From Escherichia coli (GTDB taxonomy: Bacteria; Pseudomonadota; Gammaproteobacteria; Enterobacterales; Enterobacteriaceae): DNA of 64,000 bases. This document shows positions 14,350 through 33,445 of this stretch, one piece after another. The notes under the pieces are model-generated. The model searched no databases and was not told the origin of the DNA. It worked only from the letters and a program-made list of their open reading frames with translations. Position 1 is the first letter of the stretch. Each line of letters begins with the position of its first letter. Position numbers and translations under genes: made by a program. Location of the stretch: the NCBI RefSeq assembly GCF_030013595.1, contig NZ_CP122768.1; one strand, written 5' to 3'.

Positions 14350-14425
<76 letters not shown>

Positions 14426-14479
14426 GTTTAAAAGGCATCGGCGTCAAGCGGATGTCTGGCTGAAAGGCCTGAAGAATTT

Positions 14480-14553
14480 GGCGCGTTAACAAAGCGGTTA
14501 TGTAGCGGATTGCAAATCCGTCTAGTCCGGTTCGACTCCGGAACGCGCCTCCA
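14480..14553 (+). tRNA. cysT: tRNA-Cys (GCA)
   Basis: GGCGCGTTAACAAAGCGGTTATGTAGCGGATTGCAAATCCGTCTAGTCCGGTTCGACTCCGGAACGCGCCTCCA read directly. Confidence 0.92.
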
Positions 14554-14565
14554 CTTTCTTCCCGA

Positions 14566-14652
14566 GCCCGGATGGTGGAATCGGTAGACACAAGGGATTT
14601 AAAATCCCTCGGCGTTCGCGCTGTGCGGGTTCAAGTCCCGCTCCGGGTACCA
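14566..14652 (+). tRNA. leuZ: tRNA-Leu (TAA), long-variable-arm type; 3' part lies inside prophage attL
   Basis: GCCCGGATGGTGGAATCGGTAGACACAAGGGATTTAAAATCCC...GGTTCAAGTCCCGCTCCGGGTACCA read directly. Confidence 0.92.
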
Positions 14653-14782: not shown

Positions 14783-15826
14783 TCATTTTCTCTGGCCACC
14801 AACTACGGGCACTACTTTAACTTTTCGGTCATATGCTGCTGTCTGTCGTGGGTTCTTATGCCCGGAAATTGCTTGCTTCTCTTCCAGGCTGCCTTCCAGA
14901 TCAGAGATACCTTTTGCTTTCAGATCATGAAATGTGAAGTCTATTTGCAGATGAGGATATTTTTCCTGTGCTGCCGCTTTGACATCACGCCAACGAGAGT
15001 TAAAACCATCACGGGTGTACTTGCCTCCGGTAGTTTGATGAATCACAAACAGGCTACTGATTCCCGGTTTTAATGGCAGAGAACGAGCCAGAGCTATCGC
15101 TTTCTGCAGACGAGGCGACCAGGCTTTGATTTGCTTAACGCCGGTTTTTCCCTGACGAATGTAGATCCCGGAATCGAACAGCTGGTCTTTCTGTAATGAA
15201 AGTACATCACTCTGTCTGGCCACACATAAGTAGGCAATCTCCATTGCCACGCGAACAACATCAGGAGACACTTCATAAACGGCCTGATATTCTTCATCCG
15301 TAATATAACGTTCGCGTGCTGTCTCTTTAAACTGCTTAACTCCCTGACAAGGATTCCTCTGGACATAACCTCGTTCATAACCCCAACGGAATACCCTGGA
15401 CATAAAGCTTTTTTCCCTATTTGCCTGAGTTCGGCTTGATAAACCGCGTTGATCCATATAGCGCCGAATATGTTCAGGTTTGATTTTATCCGGGTCGATC
15501 TTCCCGAAGACAGGCAGAACTTTTCCGGAATATTTTGTGTAGTCTTTCCTGGTTTCGACTGCCAAATCCATAAAATCAGGGGAGGTCATGAATTGTTCCG
15601 CGAGCGCCTGAAAAGTATTTCTTTCTTTTTCGTCACCGACCGCTTTTTCATATGCCAGCCATACGGCTGATCGTGGCGCATCCAATGCGCACAGGCGTAT
15701 CGCTTTGTTATCTTTATTCCTGAATTCGTAGGCCGCTTTGCCCTGGTAAACACGAGGCGGCATCCAGTTATCTGCTGGGTTCTTTCTCTTTCCGGCCATT
15801 AAATATTGCTCCAAAATCAGGTTCAT
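14783..15826 (-). CDS. int: Prophage tyrosine integrase
   Basis: 347-aa ORF next to attL/tRNA, opposite orientation; C-terminal region (...HDLKAKGISDLEG...SGHKNPRQTAAYDRK) resembles tyrosine-recombinase catalytic region. Confidence 0.85.
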   Translation of the reverse strand: MNLILEQYLMAGKRKNPADNWMPPRVYQGKAAYEFRNKDNKAIRLCALDAPRSAVWLAYEKAVGDEKERNTFQALAEQFMTSPDFMDLAVETRKDYTKYSGKVLPVFGKIDPDKIKPEHIRRYMDQRGLSSRTQANREKSFMSRVFRWGYERGYVQRNPCQGVKQFKETARERYITDEEYQAVYEVSPDVVRVAMEIAYLCVARQSDVLSLQKDQLFDSGIYIRQGKTGVKQIKAWSPRLQKAIALARSLPLKPGISSLFVIHQTTGGKYTRDGFNSRWRDVKAAAQEKYPHLQIDFTFHDLKAKGISDLEGSLEEKQAISGHKNPRQTAAYDRKVKVVPVVGGQRK

Positions 15827-21878: not shown

Positions 21879-22103
21879 ATGTTAAGACATATTGACCGCA
21901 TTACCTGGCGTAACGGCTGGCACCTGAATGGACGCCCGGCACATGTTGCAGAGATCCAACCTATTTTTGATGGGCGTATGGCTGCCGCGCTTTCGGTGTG
22001 GGAGCAGTATGAATCCAGGAAGGTCGAGTTGCGCGACAAAGGGCTGAGCAATGCGGACTATGAAGCCGGTTGTCGTCAGATAGCCGAAGCTCTGGAGATC
22101 TGA
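21879..22103 (+). CDS. Hypothetical early protein
   Basis: 74-aa ORF preceded by the recurring ACCGAGGAAAGACC leader motif. Confidence 0.4.
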   Translation: MLRHIDRITWRNGWHLNGRPAHVAEIQPIFDGRMAAALSVWEQYESRKVELRDKGLSNADYEAGCRQIAEALEI

Positions 22104-22105
22104 GT

Positions 22106-23182
22106 ATGAGTCGTTTGCTGATTAACGAAAACCCCCTTCAGGTCCTGCCCACGTTGGCATGCACTATAGGGTTGAATGAAGCCATCGTTCTACAGCAAAT
22201 CCACTACTGGCTGAATTCATCTCAAAATTTCTTCGAAAATCGCCACTGGGTGTACAACAGTGTGACCGATTGGCAAGAACAATTCCCGTTCTGGAGCGAG
22301 TCGACAATAAAACGCGTGCTGGCCAATCTGGAAAAATTGAATGTGGTATTTACTGGGAACTTTAACAGTGATGCCTGGGATAAAACCAAGTGGTATTCAA
22401 TCAATTATGCCCAGTTATGTAAGATTGAAGAGACAACATTCCCTGTGGCCAATCGATTAGGTCAAGTTGACCCAATCGAAGAGGTCAATGTGACCCAAGC
22501 ATCAGGTCAAGTTGACCCATGCGCTAAGGTCAAAATGACCCAATCTCTTACAGAGAATACAACAGAGAGTACTACAGAGAGTACTACAGAGATAAAAGAT
22601 CCCCCTTACCCCCAAAAGGGGGAGGGCGAGGAAATCATTCTCGCTGACGCTCAAAAAGCTCTGAACTACTACAACGAGAAAGTCGGTACACGCTGCCGCG
22701 ACGTTAAACCGTTTGTCATGCTGCTGACTGCCACCACCACCCGCGCTGGTTACAGCGTGGCTGAGATTCAGTTAGTAATTCGTTGGGTTATTGCGACATG
22801 GCGCCGTCGTAGCGGAAGCGTGCCGAAACCTGCGAACATTTGCCGCGTAAACCGGTTTGACGGATATCTGGCTGACGCTGAGGCGTGGGCCACTGCTGAG
22901 GCTGCCGTTGACCCTGCTGAAGTTGTGAAGGGCTACAACGAGATTCTGGGCGACCTGCTACCTATAGCTGAAATTGATACTGACCGCCGTCGGGCAATCC
23001 TGCGCCTGCTGGCACATATGCGCACGCAAACTCTTGGCGCATTTATCGGCTACTTCGAAAAATTCCGCGATAACGCCCCAGACTTCTATTTCGGCGGCGA
23101 ATATCGCACCGGCTGGCGGGCAGGGTTTGATTACCTGATGAAGCCAGAAACACTGCGTAAAACCAGGGAAGGGGCATTATGA
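22106..23182 (+). CDS. Replication initiator (lambda O-like, ori iterons inside the gene)
   Basis: GGAG RBS before MSRLLINENPL...; four GGTCAA-NN-TGACCCA iterons and a TESTTESTTE-encoding repeat in mid-gene; followed by helicase. Confidence 0.6.
   Translation: MSRLLINENPLQVLPTLACTIGLNEAIVLQQIHYWLNSSQNFFENRHWVYNSVTDWQEQFPFWSESTIKRVLANLEKLNVVFTGNFNSDAWDKTKWYSINYAQLCKIEETTFPVANRLGQVDPIEEVNVTQASGQVDPCAKVKMTQSLTENTTESTTESTTEIKDPPYPQKGEGEEIILADAQKALNYYNEKVGTRCRDVKPFVMLLTATTTRAGYSVAEIQLVIRWVIATWRRRSGSVPKPANICRVNRFDGYLADAEAWATAEAAVDPAEVVKGYNEILGDLLPIAEIDTDRRRAILRLLAHMRTQTLGAFIGYFEKFRDNAPDFYFGGEYRTGWRAGFDYLMKPETLRKTREGAL
22460..22543. repeat. Origin iterons: 4 copies of GGTCAA(NN)TGACCCA at ~23-bp spacing
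   Basis: ggtcaagttgaccca / ggtcaatgtgaccca / ggtcaagttgaccca / ggtcaaaatgaccca, followed by (actacagagagt)n. Confidence 0.6.
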
Positions 23183-25949: not shown

Positions 25950-26207
25950 ATGCAGACTCAATTAAAGGTTAAAGGCGGTTATAGTCATTTTTTCTTCGCC
26001 AATATTGAAGTCTCACAAAGAGAGTCAAATGGCGGTTTGGTTGTCGTTAGGGATGTTAATATACCTATTACAACAACAACTCTCTCTCTGTTAGAGAATT
26101 ACGCTGTAGGGCAGGTGTTGACGTTAGAACAAAAGAATGGCGATTTTTTTGATGTGTATTACGTTGGAACTGATGGGAATAACTTTCAGTTTTCAACGCA
26201 CTGCTAA
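25950..26207 (+). CDS. Hypothetical AT-rich small protein (3' end lies in repeat copy A)
   Basis: 85-aa ORF with AAGGAG RBS; its last ~90 nt reappear degenerate at 31186.. Confidence 0.4.
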   Translation: MQTQLKVKGGYSHFFFANIEVSQRESNGGLVVVRDVNIPITTTTLSLLENYAVGQVLTLEQKNGDFFDVYYVGTDGNNFQFSTHC

Positions 26208-26350
26208 TTTATCAAGGCCCTGTGAGCAGGGCCTTCGAAAGCCTACTAAAGTCTGTTTCATAGAGAGAGTTATTTGCGATTAAAAAGGTATTTGGTCACG
26301 ACCAGCACGATAGAGAATACATCTTTCAAAGTACCGCCCATATAAAACAG
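26118..26350. repeat. Imperfect direct repeat, copy A (~230 bp)
   Basis: Roughly 80-85% identical by eye to 31186..31413 (ttgacgttagaacaaaa ... aaaaggtatttggtcacgacca). Confidence 0.7.
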
Positions 26351-26649
26351 TTACATATGCACTTGATGACTAAGCTGGCACCAGGTTAACACCATGCGCC
26401 AGCTTGAAGGAGACTTCAGTTATTGGTTTCTGAGGAAAGCGATTCTTGAAAGGGTCATTTGCGTCTGGCAGTCGACCATTTTCTTGACTTCAGCATCTGT
26501 TCCTTTCTTGACTTCAGCATCTGTTCCCTGCATTGAAACTTTACCGCACATAGCATCCTTAGTTTTGATCCACTGGCGCTGAGAAGGCAGCAACTTGAAC
26601 CGCCCCGGAAATCCTGGAGACTAAACTCCCTGAGAAAGAGGTAAACAGG

Positions 26650-26976
26650 ATGACTAAAAATACTCGTTTTTCCCCCGAAGTCCGTCAGCGGGCGATTCGT
26701 ATGGTTCTGGAAAGTCAGGATGAATATGACTCACAGTGGGCGGCAATTTGTTCCATTGCCCCAAAGATTGGCTGTACGCCGGAGACTCTGCGTGTCTGGG
26801 TTCGCCAGCATGAGCGGGATACCGGGGGCGGTGATGGTGGGCTCACCAGCGCTGAACGTCAGCGTCTGAAAGAGCTGGAACGTGAAAATCGTGAACTGCG
26901 CCGCAGTAACGATATCCTTCGCCAGGCTTCCGCTTATTTTGCGAAGGCGGAGTTCGACCGCCTCTGGAAAAAATGA
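26650..26976 (+). CDS. IS3-family transposase OrfA (HTH)
   Basis: [41 protein letters not shown]...; ends in AAAAAATGA frameshift window (A-run 26968-26973). Confidence 0.85.
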
Positions 26977-27863
26977 TGCCACTGCTGGATAAGCTGCGTG
27001 AGCAGTACGGGGTCGGACCGGTATGTAGCGAACTGCATATTGCCCCGTCAACGTATTACCATTGTCAGCAACAGCGACATCATCCGGATAAACGCAGTGC
27101 CCGTGCGCAGCACGATGACTGGCTGAAGAAAGAGATACAGCGCGTATACGATGAAAATCACCAGGTATACGGTGTGCGTAAAGTCTGGCGTCAGTTGTTA
27201 CGGGAAGGTATCAGAGTGGCCAGATGCACTGTGGCACGTCTCATGGCAGTTATGGGACTTGCCGGTGTTCTCCGGGGTAAAAAGGTCCGCACTACCGTCA
27301 GCCGGAAAGCCGTTGCCGCAGGCGACCGCGTAAACCGTCAGTTCGTGGCAGAACGACCTGACCAGCTGTGGGTGGCTGATTTTACTTACGTCAGCACATG
27401 GCAGGGCTTCGTCTATGTGGCGTTTATCATTGATGTGTTTGCCGGATACATCGTGGGGTGGCGGGTCTCATCGTCTATGGAAACGACATTCGTGCTGGAT
27501 GCGCTGGAGCAGGCGTTGTGGGCCCGTCGTCCGTCTGGCACCATCCATCACAGCGATAAAGGCTCTCAGTATGTGTCACTGGCCTATACGGAGCGACTAA
27601 AAGAAGCCGGATTACTGGCATCAACAGGGAGTACAGGCGACTCGTATGACAACGCGATGGCTGAGAGCATCAATGGTCTTTACAAAGCGGAGGTAATACA
27701 CCGTAAGAGCTGGAAAAAACGTGCAGAAGTGGAACTGGCCACACTAACGTGGGTGGACTGGTATAACAATCGACGATTGCTGGGAAGGCTGGGCCATACT
27801 CCTCCGGCAGAAGCAGAAAAAGCTTATTATGCTTCCATCGGAAACGATGATCTGGCAGCCTGA
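26973..27863 (+). CDS. IS3-family transposase OrfB (DDE catalytic domain), -1 frame relative to OrfA
   Basis: 296 aa with DDE integrase-core-like region (...[31 protein letters not shown]...[10 protein letters not shown]...[15 protein letters not shown]). Confidence 0.85.
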
Positions 27864-29436
27864 GTTCACAGATAAAACACTCTCCAGGAAACCCGGGGCG
27901 GTTCAACTCTTTTTTCTTCGCCGGGGTTAACTTGCTCCAGACGGTATTCAAATCAGAGTCAGCATTTGCAAATGCCATTCGGGACTGATCAAGGCTTTCA
28001 GATTTTTGCGGCTGAAGTTGTGCCTGCCTCTCTTTTTGCTTCTCCGCCTCATACCTGGCCTGTTCCTGTGCCCTGAGTTGCACCTGTTGTTCCGCTTCAA
28101 TTTGACTCTGTTGGGCATCCTTAGCCTGCTGGATTTTCTGCTGCTCAACGATCGGGTTGATAATGGAAAGCGATGTCAGTAAAGCGGCGCCCACTGATAT
28201 CGGATTATCAGAAGAGGTTTTTACAAAAACGTTTTTCTGATCGTCGGTCGCCTGCACGGTGTAGGTGATACGCCTTGAAAAGGCGTTTGCGTTGTTCTCC
28301 AAAAACAGATTTTCCATTTGCTTATCGAGATTACGATTAAAATTCTTTCTGTAAGCATCTGAAAGCTGGACGTACTCGTTCGCAGGTAGAGTCATCGTCA
28401 CGGTCCCTTCACAAGTTTTCATTGTGCTGCCCGTGTCACTTGATGTTGTGGAGATTTCAGAGACGGCTAGTTTGATCTTGTCCAGTGTGCTTCGTTTGGT
28501 CTGATTAGTGACATCAGGGTATTTATCGACCTGTTCAGAGAGTCCTTCATAAGCAGATTTTTTTAATAAATCCATGAGAGCTGATTGGGTCATTTCCGAA
28601 GAACAACCGATCTCATCTTTTTTGTTATCACAGCCTGTAAGGGCAATGGCGAGTAAGAGTACTGAGTATTTTAATCTCATGAATTCCCTTTAGAGTAAGG
28701 ATTGGTTTTTAAGACGCGGTCTGTAATCAGTTCCGAGAGCTACAGTAAACAACGCTGAGCACTGAACGCATCACAGGCAAGGTAAAAGGTGATATCGGCA
28801 AAGGCTGTGAAACCTTTAATTCAACAGATGGGAACGGTATGCACAGGATCCTGTAACGACGCTCCCAAAACTGGAAACCTGTAAGGCATGTTTTCGCTGC
28901 TGAACTTAATATACGAACCTGCACTATCATGAACATATTTTATATCGTTATACCCCGAGTGATTGTGCCCGGCAATGGATAGTGTCCTGGAGGAATTATT
29001 TCTAATGTAAAAGGAAGATATTTAATTTCGATGTGGGATTATTACCTGTCTATAAGAACAATGACTTTATCTGGCAGTAAGCAGACATCTATTAGCTTAC
29101 TGAAGGGGGGCTGTGATTTGACCATTAACGGCATGAGATATATTGTCTATTGGTGATTGTTCTGAGGCCGATATCACGTTAACGACCAAGTAAAATAACA
29201 TGAAAAATTATTTATTAATGATTGCCAGCATTAAATGTAGTGATACCTCATTAGCAGGGTGCTCCGCAATGACTGCGATGAACTAAAAAATCAGTCATAA
29301 CCATGAAAAAAACAAGTGTATCAGCGAAATTAAATCTGGTGAAAGCATTTAATTACTTGTTAATGACGCAATAAAAACATACTATGGAAATGTAACAGCT
29401 AATCTACAGTTCTTGTCAATAGGGGCGCACAAGAAA

Positions 29437-30027
29437 ATGTTAAATGAATTTAAGGAAAAGCTACTATCCGACGATATCCGCGATGTCTACCAACGATACC
29501 TTTTAGGACATGACATCTGGTATTTTCGGGAACAAAAAAAATCAATAACCTTTGCTAAAGATTATGATGAGTTTAAGCTATATATGTCTAAGAAGCTTGA
29601 AATTCATGTAAATAATATTGCAATTGTTGGAAGTGCTAAGATGGGATTCAGCTTGAGCCCTGATAAAAATTATCGAACATTTAACGATGAGTCAGATATA
29701 GACTTGGTTTTAGTATCCGACAGAATTTATAAATCTTCCTGGATGGCATTTATTGAATTACAATCAAAGAATTATTTGCCTGTATATGCTCCTGTAGCTA
29801 AAAATATTTTCAAAGGATTCGTGTCATTGAAGGAGTTAGATATTAGAGTCGATTTTTTTAATAAATGGTCCCGTAACGTTGAACCATTAAAAAAAGACAT
29901 TCAAACTATTTTTGGAATACCTAACGACATCAACTACAGAATTTATGACTCTTGGGAGTCCGTTGAACGCTATCACATAGCTGGGTTGAATAGTCTAAAA
30001 GATAAGTTACAAGGACAATTGATATGA
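29437..30027 (+). CDS. Nucleotidyltransferase-fold protein (Pol-beta superfamily signature), function unknown
   Basis: IAIVGSAKMGFSLSPDKNYRTFNDESDIDLVLVSD = hG[GS]...[DE]hDh motif; AT-rich; stop overlaps next start (ATGA); track ORF begins at TTG 29413. Confidence 0.5.
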   Translation: MLNEFKEKLLSDDIRDVYQRYLLGHDIWYFREQKKSITFAKDYDEFKLYMSKKLEIHVNNIAIVGSAKMGFSLSPDKNYRTFNDESDIDLVLVSDRIYKSSWMAFIELQSKNYLPVYAPVAKNIFKGFVSLKELDIRVDFFNKWSRNVEPLKKDIQTIFGIPNDINYRIYDSWESVERYHIAGLNSLKDKLQGQLI

Positions 30028-31082
30028 GAGCTATTGATCTAATTAAAGTTGAATCGAAAGACATTAAATGGTTGACGGATAATTTGAAATCAGGTGTTAT
30101 TACAGTTGATAATTCATATCAGAGAAAATATATCTGGCAGCAAAAAGACCAAGTGGCCTTAATTGAGACAATATTAATTGGCTACCCAATCCCTGAGATT
30201 TACCTTTGGGCAAATAATACTGATCCTGACACTGGAGATACTAAATATTCAATTGTAGATGGACAGCAAAGGCTAACCACAATCCAGCGATATTTAAATG
30301 ATGAGTTTAAGTTAAGCAAAGCAGCTATAGATGATAAAGAAGCCGACTATAGTGGGAAAATTTTTTCAGAATTGTCGGCAGATAACAAACGTGATTTTTG
30401 GCGATACCAATTCTCATCCAGATTTATTAATGAATCATTGAGATATGATGAGATTGCAAAGTTATTTTTACGTCTAAATAGAACAAATACTACGTTAAAT
30501 CCTCAAGAACTTCGTAATGCTGAATTTAATGGCGAGTTTTTAAGATTAGCCGAAGAAATTGCACAAAATGAATTTTGGGATAATTATAAGATATTTACTC
30601 AGTCAGATATCCGTCGGATGCAAGACATTCAATTCATCAGCACATTATTGATTTTCTTACGAATGGGTATTGAGCAGGATAATACACAAAAATCAATTAA
30701 TCGAGTGTATGATCAATACAATGAGAATTACCCTGAGGCGACTGAGGACAGAATTATCTTTAACGAAGTGTTAAGGATCATATCTCAAATTATCAACAAT
30801 AAACAAGTATTAGAATCAGTTGTAAAGAAAAAAGGCCATTTGTATTTTATATTTGTGCTGGCATACTATTATTTACAGCTTAGTAAATCTAAGCTTGTTG
30901 ATATGAATGTTATTAGTTCAAAGCTCGAGGATTTTTTTAATATTTATGAGTTAAATGAACAAGATAACCCCCATCCACTGGTTGAGGAATATAGATTCCT
31001 CAGCCAAGAGGGTTCAAAGAAGAGTCATAACAGACAGCGTAGATTTGATATTTTGAAAGAATTTTGCTCTTTACATGATTAA
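30024..31082 (+). CDS. DUF262 / ParB-like protein (GmrS-type N-domain only, no DUF1524/HNH half)
   Basis: YQRKYIW...IVDGQQRLTTI and ...LNRTNTTLNPQELRNAEF motifs typical of DUF262; 352 aa; AT-rich. Confidence 0.6.
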   Translation: MRAIDLIKVESKDIKWLTDNLKSGVITVDNSYQRKYIWQQKDQVALIETILIGYPIPEIYLWANNTDPDTGDTKYSIVDGQQRLTTIQRYLNDEFKLSKAAIDDKEADYSGKIFSELSADNKRDFWRYQFSSRFINESLRYDEIAKLFLRLNRTNTTLNPQELRNAEFNGEFLRLAEEIAQNEFWDNYKIFTQSDIRRMQDIQFISTLLIFLRMGIEQDNTQKSINRVYDQYNENYPEATEDRIIFNEVLRIISQIINNKQVLESVVKKKGHLYFIFVLAYYYLQLSKSKLVDMNVISSKLEDFFNIYELNEQDNPHPLVEEYRFLSQEGSKKSHNRQRRFDILKEFCSLHD

Positions 31083-31185
31083 ATGACGAAAGTGGGTTGT
31101 TTATAAGAATTGAATAAACAACCCATCATTTTAATGTACTCTGAATCCTCTCATTCTTAGTGAAATATTGTTTTTAGAACACGTA

Positions 31186-31413
31186 TTGACGTTAGAACAA
31201 AAAATAGATTTTTTTGTGATGTATTACGTTGGAGTTGATGGGATAATTATATGTTTTCAATACATTGTTAATTTATCAAGACCCTGCGACTAAGGTGTTC
31301 GAAAATCGACTAAAGTCTGTTTCATAGAGAGAGTTACTTGCGTTTAAAAAGGTATTTGGTCACGACCAACACGAGGCCGAATACCTCAGTTTAAGTACCG
31401 CTCATGTACAACA
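31186..31413. repeat. Imperfect direct repeat, copy B (~230 bp)
   Basis: Degenerate duplicate of 26118..26350, including a decayed copy of the 3' end of the 25950..26207 gene. Confidence 0.7.
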
Positions 31414-31603
31414 GTAACGTTTGCTGATAGTGTCGCATTATCTTGCAGAGGACGCAGGTTAAATAGAACAAGCATATGTACCTGGTTTTTGTAATATTGG
31501 GTATAACATATGCTTTATAGGAGCGCGCTCAATGACCAACCGAGAAAGAATCTCCTGACAGATACAGTTATTTTCACCCTCTCCATAACATAAGGGAGTT
31601 TTT

Positions 31604-32152
31604 ATGTCGGAAGTGAGTATCGTAGAAGACGCCCCACGCCCAGTAGTCGCCGAATTGGCAGATCTGTTACAAGCACAACCATTTCATCAGAATCAATATG
31701 ATAACTTATGTCGCTTTATGATTTATTTTTCCCTGGCTGAATCAAAGTTAACATCAATGGCTGCTGGCCTTGGTAGAACTGACGCACTGGCACAGGAACT
31801 GGTTGTGCATAACGGCATGGACAGTCAGACCATAGATGATTGCTATCGTTATTTTATACGACGCTATCGAGACAGCCCTGATAGCGATTACCGCTTCAAT
31901 AAACTGGCCCCGCCTGAGTATGTTAAGAATGCAATCAGAGAACGCTTTGTTACGCTACTTCAGATACAGTCTCCAACAATTGAAGATAAAATCAGCTTTG
32001 TGTTCAAAGTGATTTTTAGGTTACGGCATAATCTTTTCCATGGAGAAAAATGGTCTTACAACCTCGAAGACCAGGAAGCTAATTTTTCACATGCCAGCAA
32101 TGTACTACTATCCTGTTTGACTCTTACTCGCGGGAGTATGTGGCACCCTTGA
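31604..32152 (+). CDS. HEPN-motif protein (putative RNase / abortive-infection-like effector)
   Basis: AAGGGAG RBS; 182 aa containing FRLRHNLFHGEK, which fits the Rx4-6H HEPN motif. Confidence 0.45.
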   Translation: MSEVSIVEDAPRPVVAELADLLQAQPFHQNQYDNLCRFMIYFSLAESKLTSMAAGLGRTDALAQELVVHNGMDSQTIDDCYRYFIRRYRDSPDSDYRFNKLAPPEYVKNAIRERFVTLLQIQSPTIEDKISFVFKVIFRLRHNLFHGEKWSYNLEDQEANFSHASNVLLSCLTLTRGSMWHP

Positions 32153-32705: not shown

Positions 32706-32722
32706 TTTTACTTTAATTGATT

Positions 32723-32749
32723 AAAGCGCCTTTTTCTGGCGCTTTTTTA
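32723..32749 (+). terminator. Rho-independent terminator
   Basis: agcgcctttttctggcgct hairpin plus T-run. Confidence 0.6.
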
Positions 32750-32764
32750 TTGCGGAAAAACCAA

Positions 32765-33445
32765 ATGGAAAAGCTCTGGGTTTTTACTCAATTAGTTACA
32801 GGGAAAGATGACACATCTGGCTTTTTGGCTTACGCGCTCTATAAGCACGACAAAAATGAATATGCAGAGAAGTTGCGTAGTAGTGGCGAATATACAGAAG
32901 AAGATATTAACGCCCAACTGAAGATCTTTCATGAGCAGACAGTTAACTCGCCAGGCCGAATTGAGTCTTACAAAGAAAAAGCAGAAGCCATCGTCACAAA
33001 CTTAACAGACCAGATAGATGCTGATATCCGGCTTGAGTACGATGCACAGTTAGCCGGTGCTAACTTGCAGGATGTTGAAATAGAACGGCTGAAAGCAGAA
33101 ATACAGGCTATGAAAGCATCACGTGAGAGCGAGCTAAGGAAGGCTGGAGAGGATGCTATTCTCAATTTTCATCGCATGGTTGAAATCACCCAGGCACGCA
33201 AACGTGGGCGTGTTTCCCGCTCGTTAGGATGGTACTGGAATGGGTTTGCCAGCATTTTCGCCACAATAACCTTCGCTGTCATTGTCTATGGTATTTGTAC
33301 TTGGGCATTGCCACAAAAATCCAGAGACGACATTGTGGATGGAGCGTTTAAAAATCTACAGGGATCGTTATTCCAACAGCCAAACATTCAATTTAATAAA
33401 GACAAAAACGAGAACGCTCAGCAACCTAACACAAGTGCCGAATAG
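32765..33445 (+). CDS. Coiled-coil protein with C-terminal transmembrane helix
   Basis: Start at MEKLWVFTQ after the terminator; hydrophobic segment GFASIFATITFAVIVYGICTW; track ORF begins at 32717 inside the terminator. Confidence 0.45.
   Translation: MEKLWVFTQLVTGKDDTSGFLAYALYKHDKNEYAEKLRSSGEYTEEDINAQLKIFHEQTVNSPGRIESYKEKAEAIVTNLTDQIDADIRLEYDAQLAGANLQDVEIERLKAEIQAMKASRESELRKAGEDAILNFHRMVEITQARKRGRVSRSLGWYWNGFASIFATITFAVIVYGICTWALPQKSRDDIVDGAFKNLQGSLFQQPNIQFNKDKNENAQQPNTSAE

Follow-up and report, generated by a model that had tools for sequence, protein, structure and literature searches.

Proteins with a DUF262 domain recur as sensors in phage defense, as in GmrSD, BrxU, SspE, Menshen, PD-T4-2 and Dazbog. 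In the model put forward for GmrSD, SspE and Menshen, DUF262 senses the state of DNA, and hydrolysis of nucleoside triphosphate (NTP) licenses an effector (PMC12065111, PMC10952713). Two validated defense systems operate without an HNH nuclease. One is Menshen (NsnABC), in which the DUF262 component NsnA also carries a helical ParBDB DNA-binding domain (PMC12065111). The other is PD-T4-2 (Vassallo et al., 2022; PMC9519451), composed of a DUF262 protein and a RiboL-PSP-type HEPN protein of about 165 amino acids. Operons joining a ParB-like protein, a HEPN protein (RiboL-PSP or MAE_28990 type) and a DNA methylase have also been noted as resembling restriction-modification (R-M) loci (Anantharaman et al., 2013; PMC3710099). 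Here, we analyze a two-gene locus at positions 29437-31082 of a 64-kb stretch of Escherichia coli DNA (contig NZ_CP122768.1, hereafter the window), in which a DUF262 protein is preceded by a protein of predicted nucleotidyltransferase (NTase) fold. It is probable that this module serves immunity or restriction. Whether the pair is, in full, translationally coupled prophage cargo acting as a DNA-directed, restriction-like system against phages or other mobile genetic elements, with the mechanism proposed below, is in our judgment an even call.

The locus comprises the following elements, where MNT stands for minimal nucleotidyltransferase.

29437-30027, + strand: gene 1, 196 amino acids, unnamed family with a predicted NTase fold; MNT-like core plus N- and C-terminal helices

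30024-31082, + strand: gene 2, 352 amino acids, DUF262 (ParB/Srx-like NTPase) with a predicted helical C-terminal domain of ParBDB type; no HNH/DUF1524

28681-29436, + strand: upstream spacer, 756 bp, non-coding, GC content 0.386, presumably with the promoter inside

The original prediction, made from the DNA letters, had described a two-gene operon with an ATGA overlap. Both open reading frames (ORFs) and the 4-nt overlap (TTG ATA TGA / ATG AGA) are present in the ORF listing, and all the peptide motifs quoted at the time were found in the translations. The listing also offers a TTG at 29413 as an alternative start of gene 1, while the ATG agrees with the RefSeq call in a near-identical genome and with the N-termini of homologs. 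In two pig-derived E. coli genomes, where the region is 98.5% identical, RefSeq labels gene 1 as a "hypothetical protein" and gene 2 as a "DUF262 domain-containing protein". The gene pair has a GC content of 0.326 compared to 0.485 for the window, and the GC content at third codon positions is 0.32 in gene 1 and 0.295 in gene 2. An AT-rich upstream region of about 750 bp had been expected; its length stands, but it is only moderately AT-rich. A promoter scan of this spacer returned fewer sites than shuffled sequence and did not locate the promoter, a terminator scan performed no better than shuffled sequence, and an Rfam search of the spacer gave no match. Homologs of gene 1 fall into 121 clusters at 90% identity, and gene 2 has a Pfam match, GmrSD_N; we therefore take both as real genes and not chance ORFs.

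The strongest evidence for a module comes from the distribution of the pair. Failure of the two genes to occur together elsewhere was part of the condition set for abandoning the original prediction, and they were found together almost without exception. Relatives of gene 1 were collected from viral contigs (10 loci), from exact-protein look-ups, and from contigs of one genome per species (80 kept of 116 found). In 99 of these 100 loci, including 79 of the 80 species-level genome loci, gene 1 is followed directly, and in the same orientation, by a DUF262 gene, and the two ORFs usually overlap or lie no more than about 15 nt apart. In the sole unpaired locus gene 1 is frameshifted. The loci span at least ten phyla, among them Proteobacteria, Bacteroidota, Bacillota, Actinobacteria, Cyanobacteria, Nitrospirota, Poribacteria, Synergistota and Chloroflexota. 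When the search started from gene 2, gene 1 was found upstream or fused in 16 of the 18 best-scoring DUF262 relatives on viral contigs; one of the remaining two is cut by the contig end and the other is without gene 1. Lower-scoring DUF262 proteins on viral contigs have other neighbors and no gene 1.

Pairwise identities of the two proteins co-vary across loci (r 0.94, Mantel p 0.001), a correlation to which shared ancestry contributes. As far as sequence comparison tells, genes 1 and 2 move and diverge as one unit. Across 87 loci, neither protein shows any departure from its catalytic-type motifs. Most loci hold the pair alone, without a third gene, and no conserved downstream gene was found across the 99 loci. 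It is thus near certain that the two genes constitute one conserved functional module. Two fused ORFs were also found. The first (L106 2227-4113, from IMG/VR UViG_2910832237_000010) encodes 628 amino acids, with a complete gene-1 domain (E 2.6e-55) that runs in frame into DUF262, and the second (P0242) encodes 392 amino acids. These fusions could be natural or could be indel artefacts at the overlapping junction, and they count as weak evidence.

As had been predicted, gene 2 encodes a full-length DUF262 protein devoid of the DUF1524/HNH nuclease half. The only Pfam match in its 352 residues is GmrSD_N/DUF262 (E 1e-24, residues 22-168), with no DUF1524/HNH domain found there, and PADLOC concurs. 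The best PADLOC model is NsnA from Menshen (4.3e-41, profile positions 48-379 of 385). PD-T4-2_A comes second and is much weaker (2.5e-19), and REase_II, SspE and HEC-05/06 give weak, domain-level matches. Since the NsnA profile aligns nearly end to end, the predicted architecture of gene 2 is of the NsnA type, namely DUF262 followed by a helical ParBDB DNA-binding domain. Among 87 non-redundant loci the invariant residues are Q33, R34 and W38; D79, G80, Q81, Q82 and R83; and F148, R150 and N152, in addition to E162, R198, R337 and R340. The putative nucleotide pocket (QR, DGQQR, FxRxN) is intact. A Foldseek search with a model of the fused gene 1-gene 2 protein returned weak matches to BrxU, ParB-CTP, SspE and a DndBCDE-DndI chain.

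Gene 1 belongs to a large family that annotation has so far passed over. Searches against Pfam, NCBIfam, PADLOC and a PDB profile gave no match. Pfam had no hit at E<=0.001 (its sole listing being DUF7074 at 0.11), and the only family match is phrog_32008, with function not assigned. A library clustered at 50% identity contains 990 clusters of the family at E<=1e-10, a number that rises to 1622 when the threshold is relaxed to E<=1e-3; with few exceptions the members are stand-alone proteins of about 200 amino acids. In the 87 loci the invariant residues are V64, G65, S66, K68, G70 and S72, followed by S86, D87, x, D89, and by Y179. The GS...SDxD residues constitute the hG[GS]...DxD signature of Pol-beta-type nucleotidyltransferases, while a third conserved acidic residue (carboxylate) was not found in the family.

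Because sequence profiles found nothing, the fold call for gene 1 relies on structure prediction. The model has a predicted local distance difference test (pLDDT) score of 95 and its best PDB matches are minimal nucleotidyltransferases, the closest being MNT antitoxins of HEPN-MNT pairs (HI0073, 1wot, 8xeh_E, 5yep). UniProt labels on the structural neighbors agree with an NTase fold. The Pol-beta-type signature claimed in the original prediction is therefore supported by invariance, model and neighbors. The profile search proposed as its check is a different matter: structure favors the fold, but no Pfam NTase family matches. We consider with moderate confidence that gene 1 has an NTase fold, and its catalytic competence is putative.

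The likeness to MNT antitoxins raises the question of whether the pair is a toxin-antitoxin (TA) system. In mntA-hepT the gene for the NTase comes first and overlaps that of its partner, and MntA inactivates HepT by nucleotidylation. By a similar type VII TA logic the DUF262/ParB-like protein would itself do the damage, perhaps as a ParB-type DNase or as an NTPase that depletes NTP, and the MNT-like NTase would be the antitoxin that nucleotidylates it, the whole forming an abortive-infection or addiction cassette. The core of gene 1 is indeed closest in fold to MNT antitoxins and shares the GS...SDxD signature, the NTase-first order with overlapping stop and start is found here too, and the pair stands alone in most loci. 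ParB-like domains have, in addition, been treated as the endoDNase of R-M-type operons (PMC3710099). However, the partner here is DUF262 (99 of 100 loci) and not HEPN. Gene 1 is also about twice the size of an MNT antitoxin, with extra helical regions in its 196 residues; it matches no MNT or other NTase family of Pfam (NTP_transf_2/Polbeta-type), and its family shows no conserved third carboxylate. Moreover, DUF262 is a sensor or regulator in every characterized system (GmrSD, BrxU, SspE) and in the Menshen model (PMC12065111, PMC10952713), and the methyltransferase linkage described below, seen in a third of loci, would be unexpected for a simple TA pair. We therefore regard the TA explanation as distinctly unlikely.

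Of the named defense systems, PD-T4-2 and Menshen come nearest. PD-T4-2 from E. coli ECOR65 is likewise a two-gene module of a DUF262 protein of about 350 amino acids without HNH and a small partner, found in the same species, and some of its relatives share an operon with a DNA methylase. Its partner, however, is of the HEPN RNase type and is the second coding sequence, whereas here the partner has a predicted NTase fold, comes first, and does not match PD-T4-2_B. With Menshen, gene 2 shares almost the whole span of the NsnA profile and the same three nucleotide-pocket motifs. Unlike Menshen, no NsnB ABC ATPase or NsnC effector lies beside the pair in the window or in related loci, and an unrelated NTase-fold gene stands upstream; the ORFs downstream of the pair in the window (genes 3 and 4) have no PADLOC match. 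GmrSD, BrxU and SspE have in common with gene 2 a DUF262 NTPase domain with QR, DGQQR and FxxxN motifs, and BrxU and SspE are among its weak structural matches, but gene 2 is without the cutting DUF1524 His-Me half, no GmrD is adjacent, and the NTase-fold partner is invariable.

Other candidates were discarded. WonAB of V. cholerae (an ABC ATPase plus a PD-(D/E)xK nuclease) and GrwAB of V. cholerae (which contains DUF1524) are unrelated, and HEC-05 and HEC-06 are GmrSD-like proteins with HNH. NCBIfam release 20 holds no model for either protein. No description of an NTase-DUF262 pairing was found in full-text literature searches or in the DUF262 papers listed since 2024. PADLOC, NCBIfam and literature searches thus agree with the earlier statement that no described system has this pairing. 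Provisionally, the pair matches no named system, as each candidate fails at least one defining feature. It is a candidate variant of the DUF262-centered immune or restriction-like systems, with a previously unannotated partner family of predicted NTase fold. It looks like a parallel solution to the HEPN-ParB-methylase operons in which an NTase-fold protein replaces HEPN.

A DNA-directed role is suggested by the neighbors of the pair. Clustering of neighboring genes gave one recurrent partner, a dcm-type cytosine-5 (C5) DNA methyltransferase (PF00145; TIGR00675 above the NCBIfam cutoff), in 33 of 99 loci. At 26 of the 33 linked loci it immediately precedes the pair in the same orientation, the gap being -8 to +13 nt. 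Genes for the Vsr mismatch endonuclease are nearby in 11 loci. The linkage follows sequence subfamily.

Bacillota subfamily: 21 loci, C5 methylase in 20 (the other one is cut by the contig end)

Long-form Bacteroidota subfamily: 8 loci, C5 methylase in 7

Cyanobacteria-rich subfamily: 7 loci, C5 methylase in 3

Large mixed subfamily: 32 loci, C5 methylase in 0

The window's own subfamily: 16 loci, C5 methylase in 0

Operons of the M-X-Y type with Vsr close by typify 5-methylcytosine (m5C) R-M loci, which places the presumed action of the pair on DNA; in the linked subfamilies, methylation would identify self. The methylase linkage therefore points to a DNA-directed, restriction-like logic. In the sister subfamilies, the M(C5)-gene 1-DUF262 order, the short gaps and the proximity of Vsr are all as in type II R-M systems (m5C plus Vsr). 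Unlike those systems, the pair contains no known endonuclease fold and the locus in the window has no methylase. Identity with REase_II, a REBASE-derived enzyme in PADLOC, was considered and rejected, as the model matches the DUF262 domain only, and weakly, even in methylase-linked homologs.

Two further observations concern the linked subfamilies. At Lachnospiraceae-type loci, a conserved gene of 244-251 amino acids with no NCBIfam hit is found about 1.0-2.4 kb upstream of gene 1, where it sits between two C5 methylase genes (L031, L033, L035, L036, L043, L047, L048, L049). It may be an added component or a controller. Within the long-form Bacteroidota subfamily (L056, L061, L069, L073, L075, L078) most DUF262 partners have about 500 amino acids owing to a C-terminal extension of about 150, and the co-operonic C5 methylases, of about 530-750 amino acids, carry extra N-terminal sequence.

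The mechanism that we propose is as follows. The DUF262/ParBDB protein would bind DNA as an NsnA-like component, and binding and hydrolysis of NTP at the QR/DGQQR/FxRxN pocket would be the switch that reports non-self DNA. This protein would couple physically to the Pol-beta-type nucleotidyltransferase encoded by gene 1. As the enzymatic output, the latter would attach nucleotides to a nucleic acid or a protein and thereby stop the invader or the infected cell. In the sister subfamilies, the co-operonic C5 methyltransferase would mark self DNA. Because the window's subfamily either lost the methylase or never had it, it would have to discriminate self in another way; it might, for instance, sense modified phage DNA or some other phage cue, as GmrSD-type DUF262 proteins do. 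The roles of DUF262 as sensor and switch and of the NTase as output are assigned by analogy to GmrSD and SspE and to the model for Menshen, and this division of labor is tentative, to the point that we would sooner doubt it than rely on it.

The contexts in which the pair occurs elsewhere are suggestive of defense islands. A pair of 49% identity in E. coli P2-like prophages has the gpA-type replication gene on one side and the portal gene on the other, which is where P2 carries its tin/old cargo. In other genomes the gene directly after the pair is a DRT UG19 reverse transcriptase (E 2.5e-182) or a PDC-S20 candidate, and at one locus the pair lies downstream of an AriA/PtuA-like ABC ATPase.

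L023 1841-3949; L014 8624-10366; L084 6212-7858: defense-type genes directly beside the pair (DRT UG19, PDC-S20, AriA/PtuA-like ATPase)

Further contexts include integrases together with a NYN gene and the vicinity of a TIR protein; other neighbors of the pair are housekeeping genes.

This variety of contexts bears on whether the pair might serve no immune function at all. It could take part in the DNA transactions of the element itself (ParB-like partition or silencing, replication control or DNA modification), or be a functionless orphan left behind after loss of a methylase. ParB-family CTPase clamps are found among the structural neighbors, and the window's subfamily has no methylase, both of which fit such a role. 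Yet the pair is spread over unrelated contexts (chromosomes, P2-like and lambdoid prophages, integrase islands) and not confined to one replicon type, and it occupies variable cargo slots and not core phage modules. The catalytic-type residues are all kept in the methylase-less subfamilies too, contrary to what decay would produce. An array of centromere-like repeats was not seen; a single weak inverted repeat inside gene 2 was all that turned up. A non-immune role is thus quite improbable.

In the window, the pair belongs to a lambdoid prophage. The integrase gene (14783-15826, - strand) follows a tRNA Gly-Cys-Leu cluster, and the prophage integration site appears to be beside the tRNA-Leu gene. 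The cluster, at 14350-14652, consists of tRNA-Gly(GCC), tRNA-Cys(GCA) and tRNA-Leu(UAA), with the tyrosine integrase gene directly after it. An ORF at 22070-23182 was considered as a hidden methylase; it contains a DPPY tetrapeptide but has no family match, and the tetrapeptide was taken as chance. The pair is located between the replication genes and a DUF1367-DUF1364-Q antiterminator block, in a repeat-bounded segment with the following features.

26107-26360, no strand: left direct repeat, bounding 5.07 kb of cargo; repeat families D1-D3, 80-86% identity, spacing about 5065 nt

31175-31424, no strand: right direct repeat, separating gene 2 from gene 3 (HEPN-like)

26595-27906, + strand: IS3-family insertion sequence (IS), with 26-nt inverted repeats, an ALIL pseudoknot at 26931-27047 and transposase ORFs; outside the module

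27670-28680, - strand: LprI-like (lysozyme inhibitor-like) gene, its 3' end cut by the IS3 insertion

31604-32152, + strand: gene 3, 182 amino acids, with an RHNLFH (Rx4H, HEPN-like) motif and phrog_27260 as its only match

The flanking repeats and the adjacent IS had both been anticipated. The former are the two direct repeats listed here, and the latter is the IS3 element, recognizable by its inverted repeats and ALIL frameshift pseudoknot. The 5.07-kb cargo contains the IS3 element, the IS-cut LprI-like gene, the spacer and the gene pair. Copies of the cargo repeat unit at about 80% identity are present in roughly 400 other E. coli genomes. The slot between the replication genes and DUF1367-DUF1364-Q is a variable cargo hotspot, because in another prophage (L100, 1-10246) the same slot bears different genes, namely an ORF6N protein, LprI, a 232-residue hypothetical protein and an ImmA/IrrE pair. 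Exchange of cargo at this hotspot looks as if driven by recombination. In one related locus (L001) the LprI-like gene is intact and IS3 copies occupy other sites, including one that separates the DUF262 gene from gene 3. Among plasmids, only two bear the pair, and no complete E. coli genome carries the P2-borne variant.

The HEPN-like gene 3 deserves separate consideration, since it could turn the pair into a three-gene unit: a PD-T4-2-type system with an MNT-like partner for its HEPN protein. The idea has some appeal. PD-T4-2 couples DUF262 to a HEPN protein of about 165 amino acids, gene 3 encodes 182 with an RHNLFH motif, and MNT and HEPN are classic partners. However, gene 3 matched nothing in Pfam, NCBIfam or PADLOC, including PD-T4-2_B. 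It is found in four near-identical prophage loci and in none of the other approximately 95 loci. It also starts 521 bp downstream of gene 2, past the right cargo repeat, and IS3 lies between them in L001. Gene 3 is outside the module, as only near-identical prophages have it, as it lies beyond the cargo repeat, and as IS3 separates it in L001; it may be an independent HEPN-type gene. A three-gene unit is very improbable. Of the downstream HEPN-like gene in the original prediction, what remains is the Rx4H motif, without a family match and without co-inheritance with the pair. Further downstream, an ORF of 242 amino acids (32717-33445, + strand; phrog_25194, E 2e-23) has a coiled-coil-like middle and a hydrophobic C-terminal segment, and it is conserved only in near-identical prophages.

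Several points weigh against a DNA-directed, restriction-like immune system. A profile of the linked methylases detected no C5 methyltransferase ORF in the 64-kb window, and because both the window and its subfamily are without a C5 methylase, the R-M logic has to be borrowed from its sisters, of which the Bacillota subfamily is the most closely related. No recognized nuclease domain was found in either protein with PADLOC or Pfam, so "restriction" comes here without an identified cutting activity. The defense neighbors described above are a few hand-picked loci and not an enrichment statistic. Few E. coli carry the pair (2 of 5426 complete genomes), and no sequenced phage isolate does. To these can be added a result that is neutral as to complex formation between the two proteins: an AlphaFold model of a gene 1-linker-gene 2 fusion, built from only 20 paired sequences and without predicted aligned error, reached a predicted template modeling score (pTM) of 0.64 with well-folded domains.

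What the pair adds to the DUF262 field is a widespread partner family (about 990 clusters at 50% identity and E<=1e-10) without a Pfam or NCBIfam model. More broadly, it could represent a new restriction-like class in which a ParB-type NTP switch reads DNA modification and nucleotidyl transfer by a Pol-beta-fold enzyme replaces nuclease cleavage, with methylase-protected and methylase-free forms in at least ten phyla and prophage-borne members. We consider this broader proposal possible, although on balance unlikely. If true, the methylase-protected forms would be R-M-like, and the methylase-free forms type IV-like or abortive. In this regard, the sister subfamilies with and without a co-operonic m5C methylase constitute a natural experiment, which makes it testable what DUF262 senses and what an NTase does as a restriction-like output. 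The E. coli prophage copy with its native upstream region offers a convenient experimental entry point.

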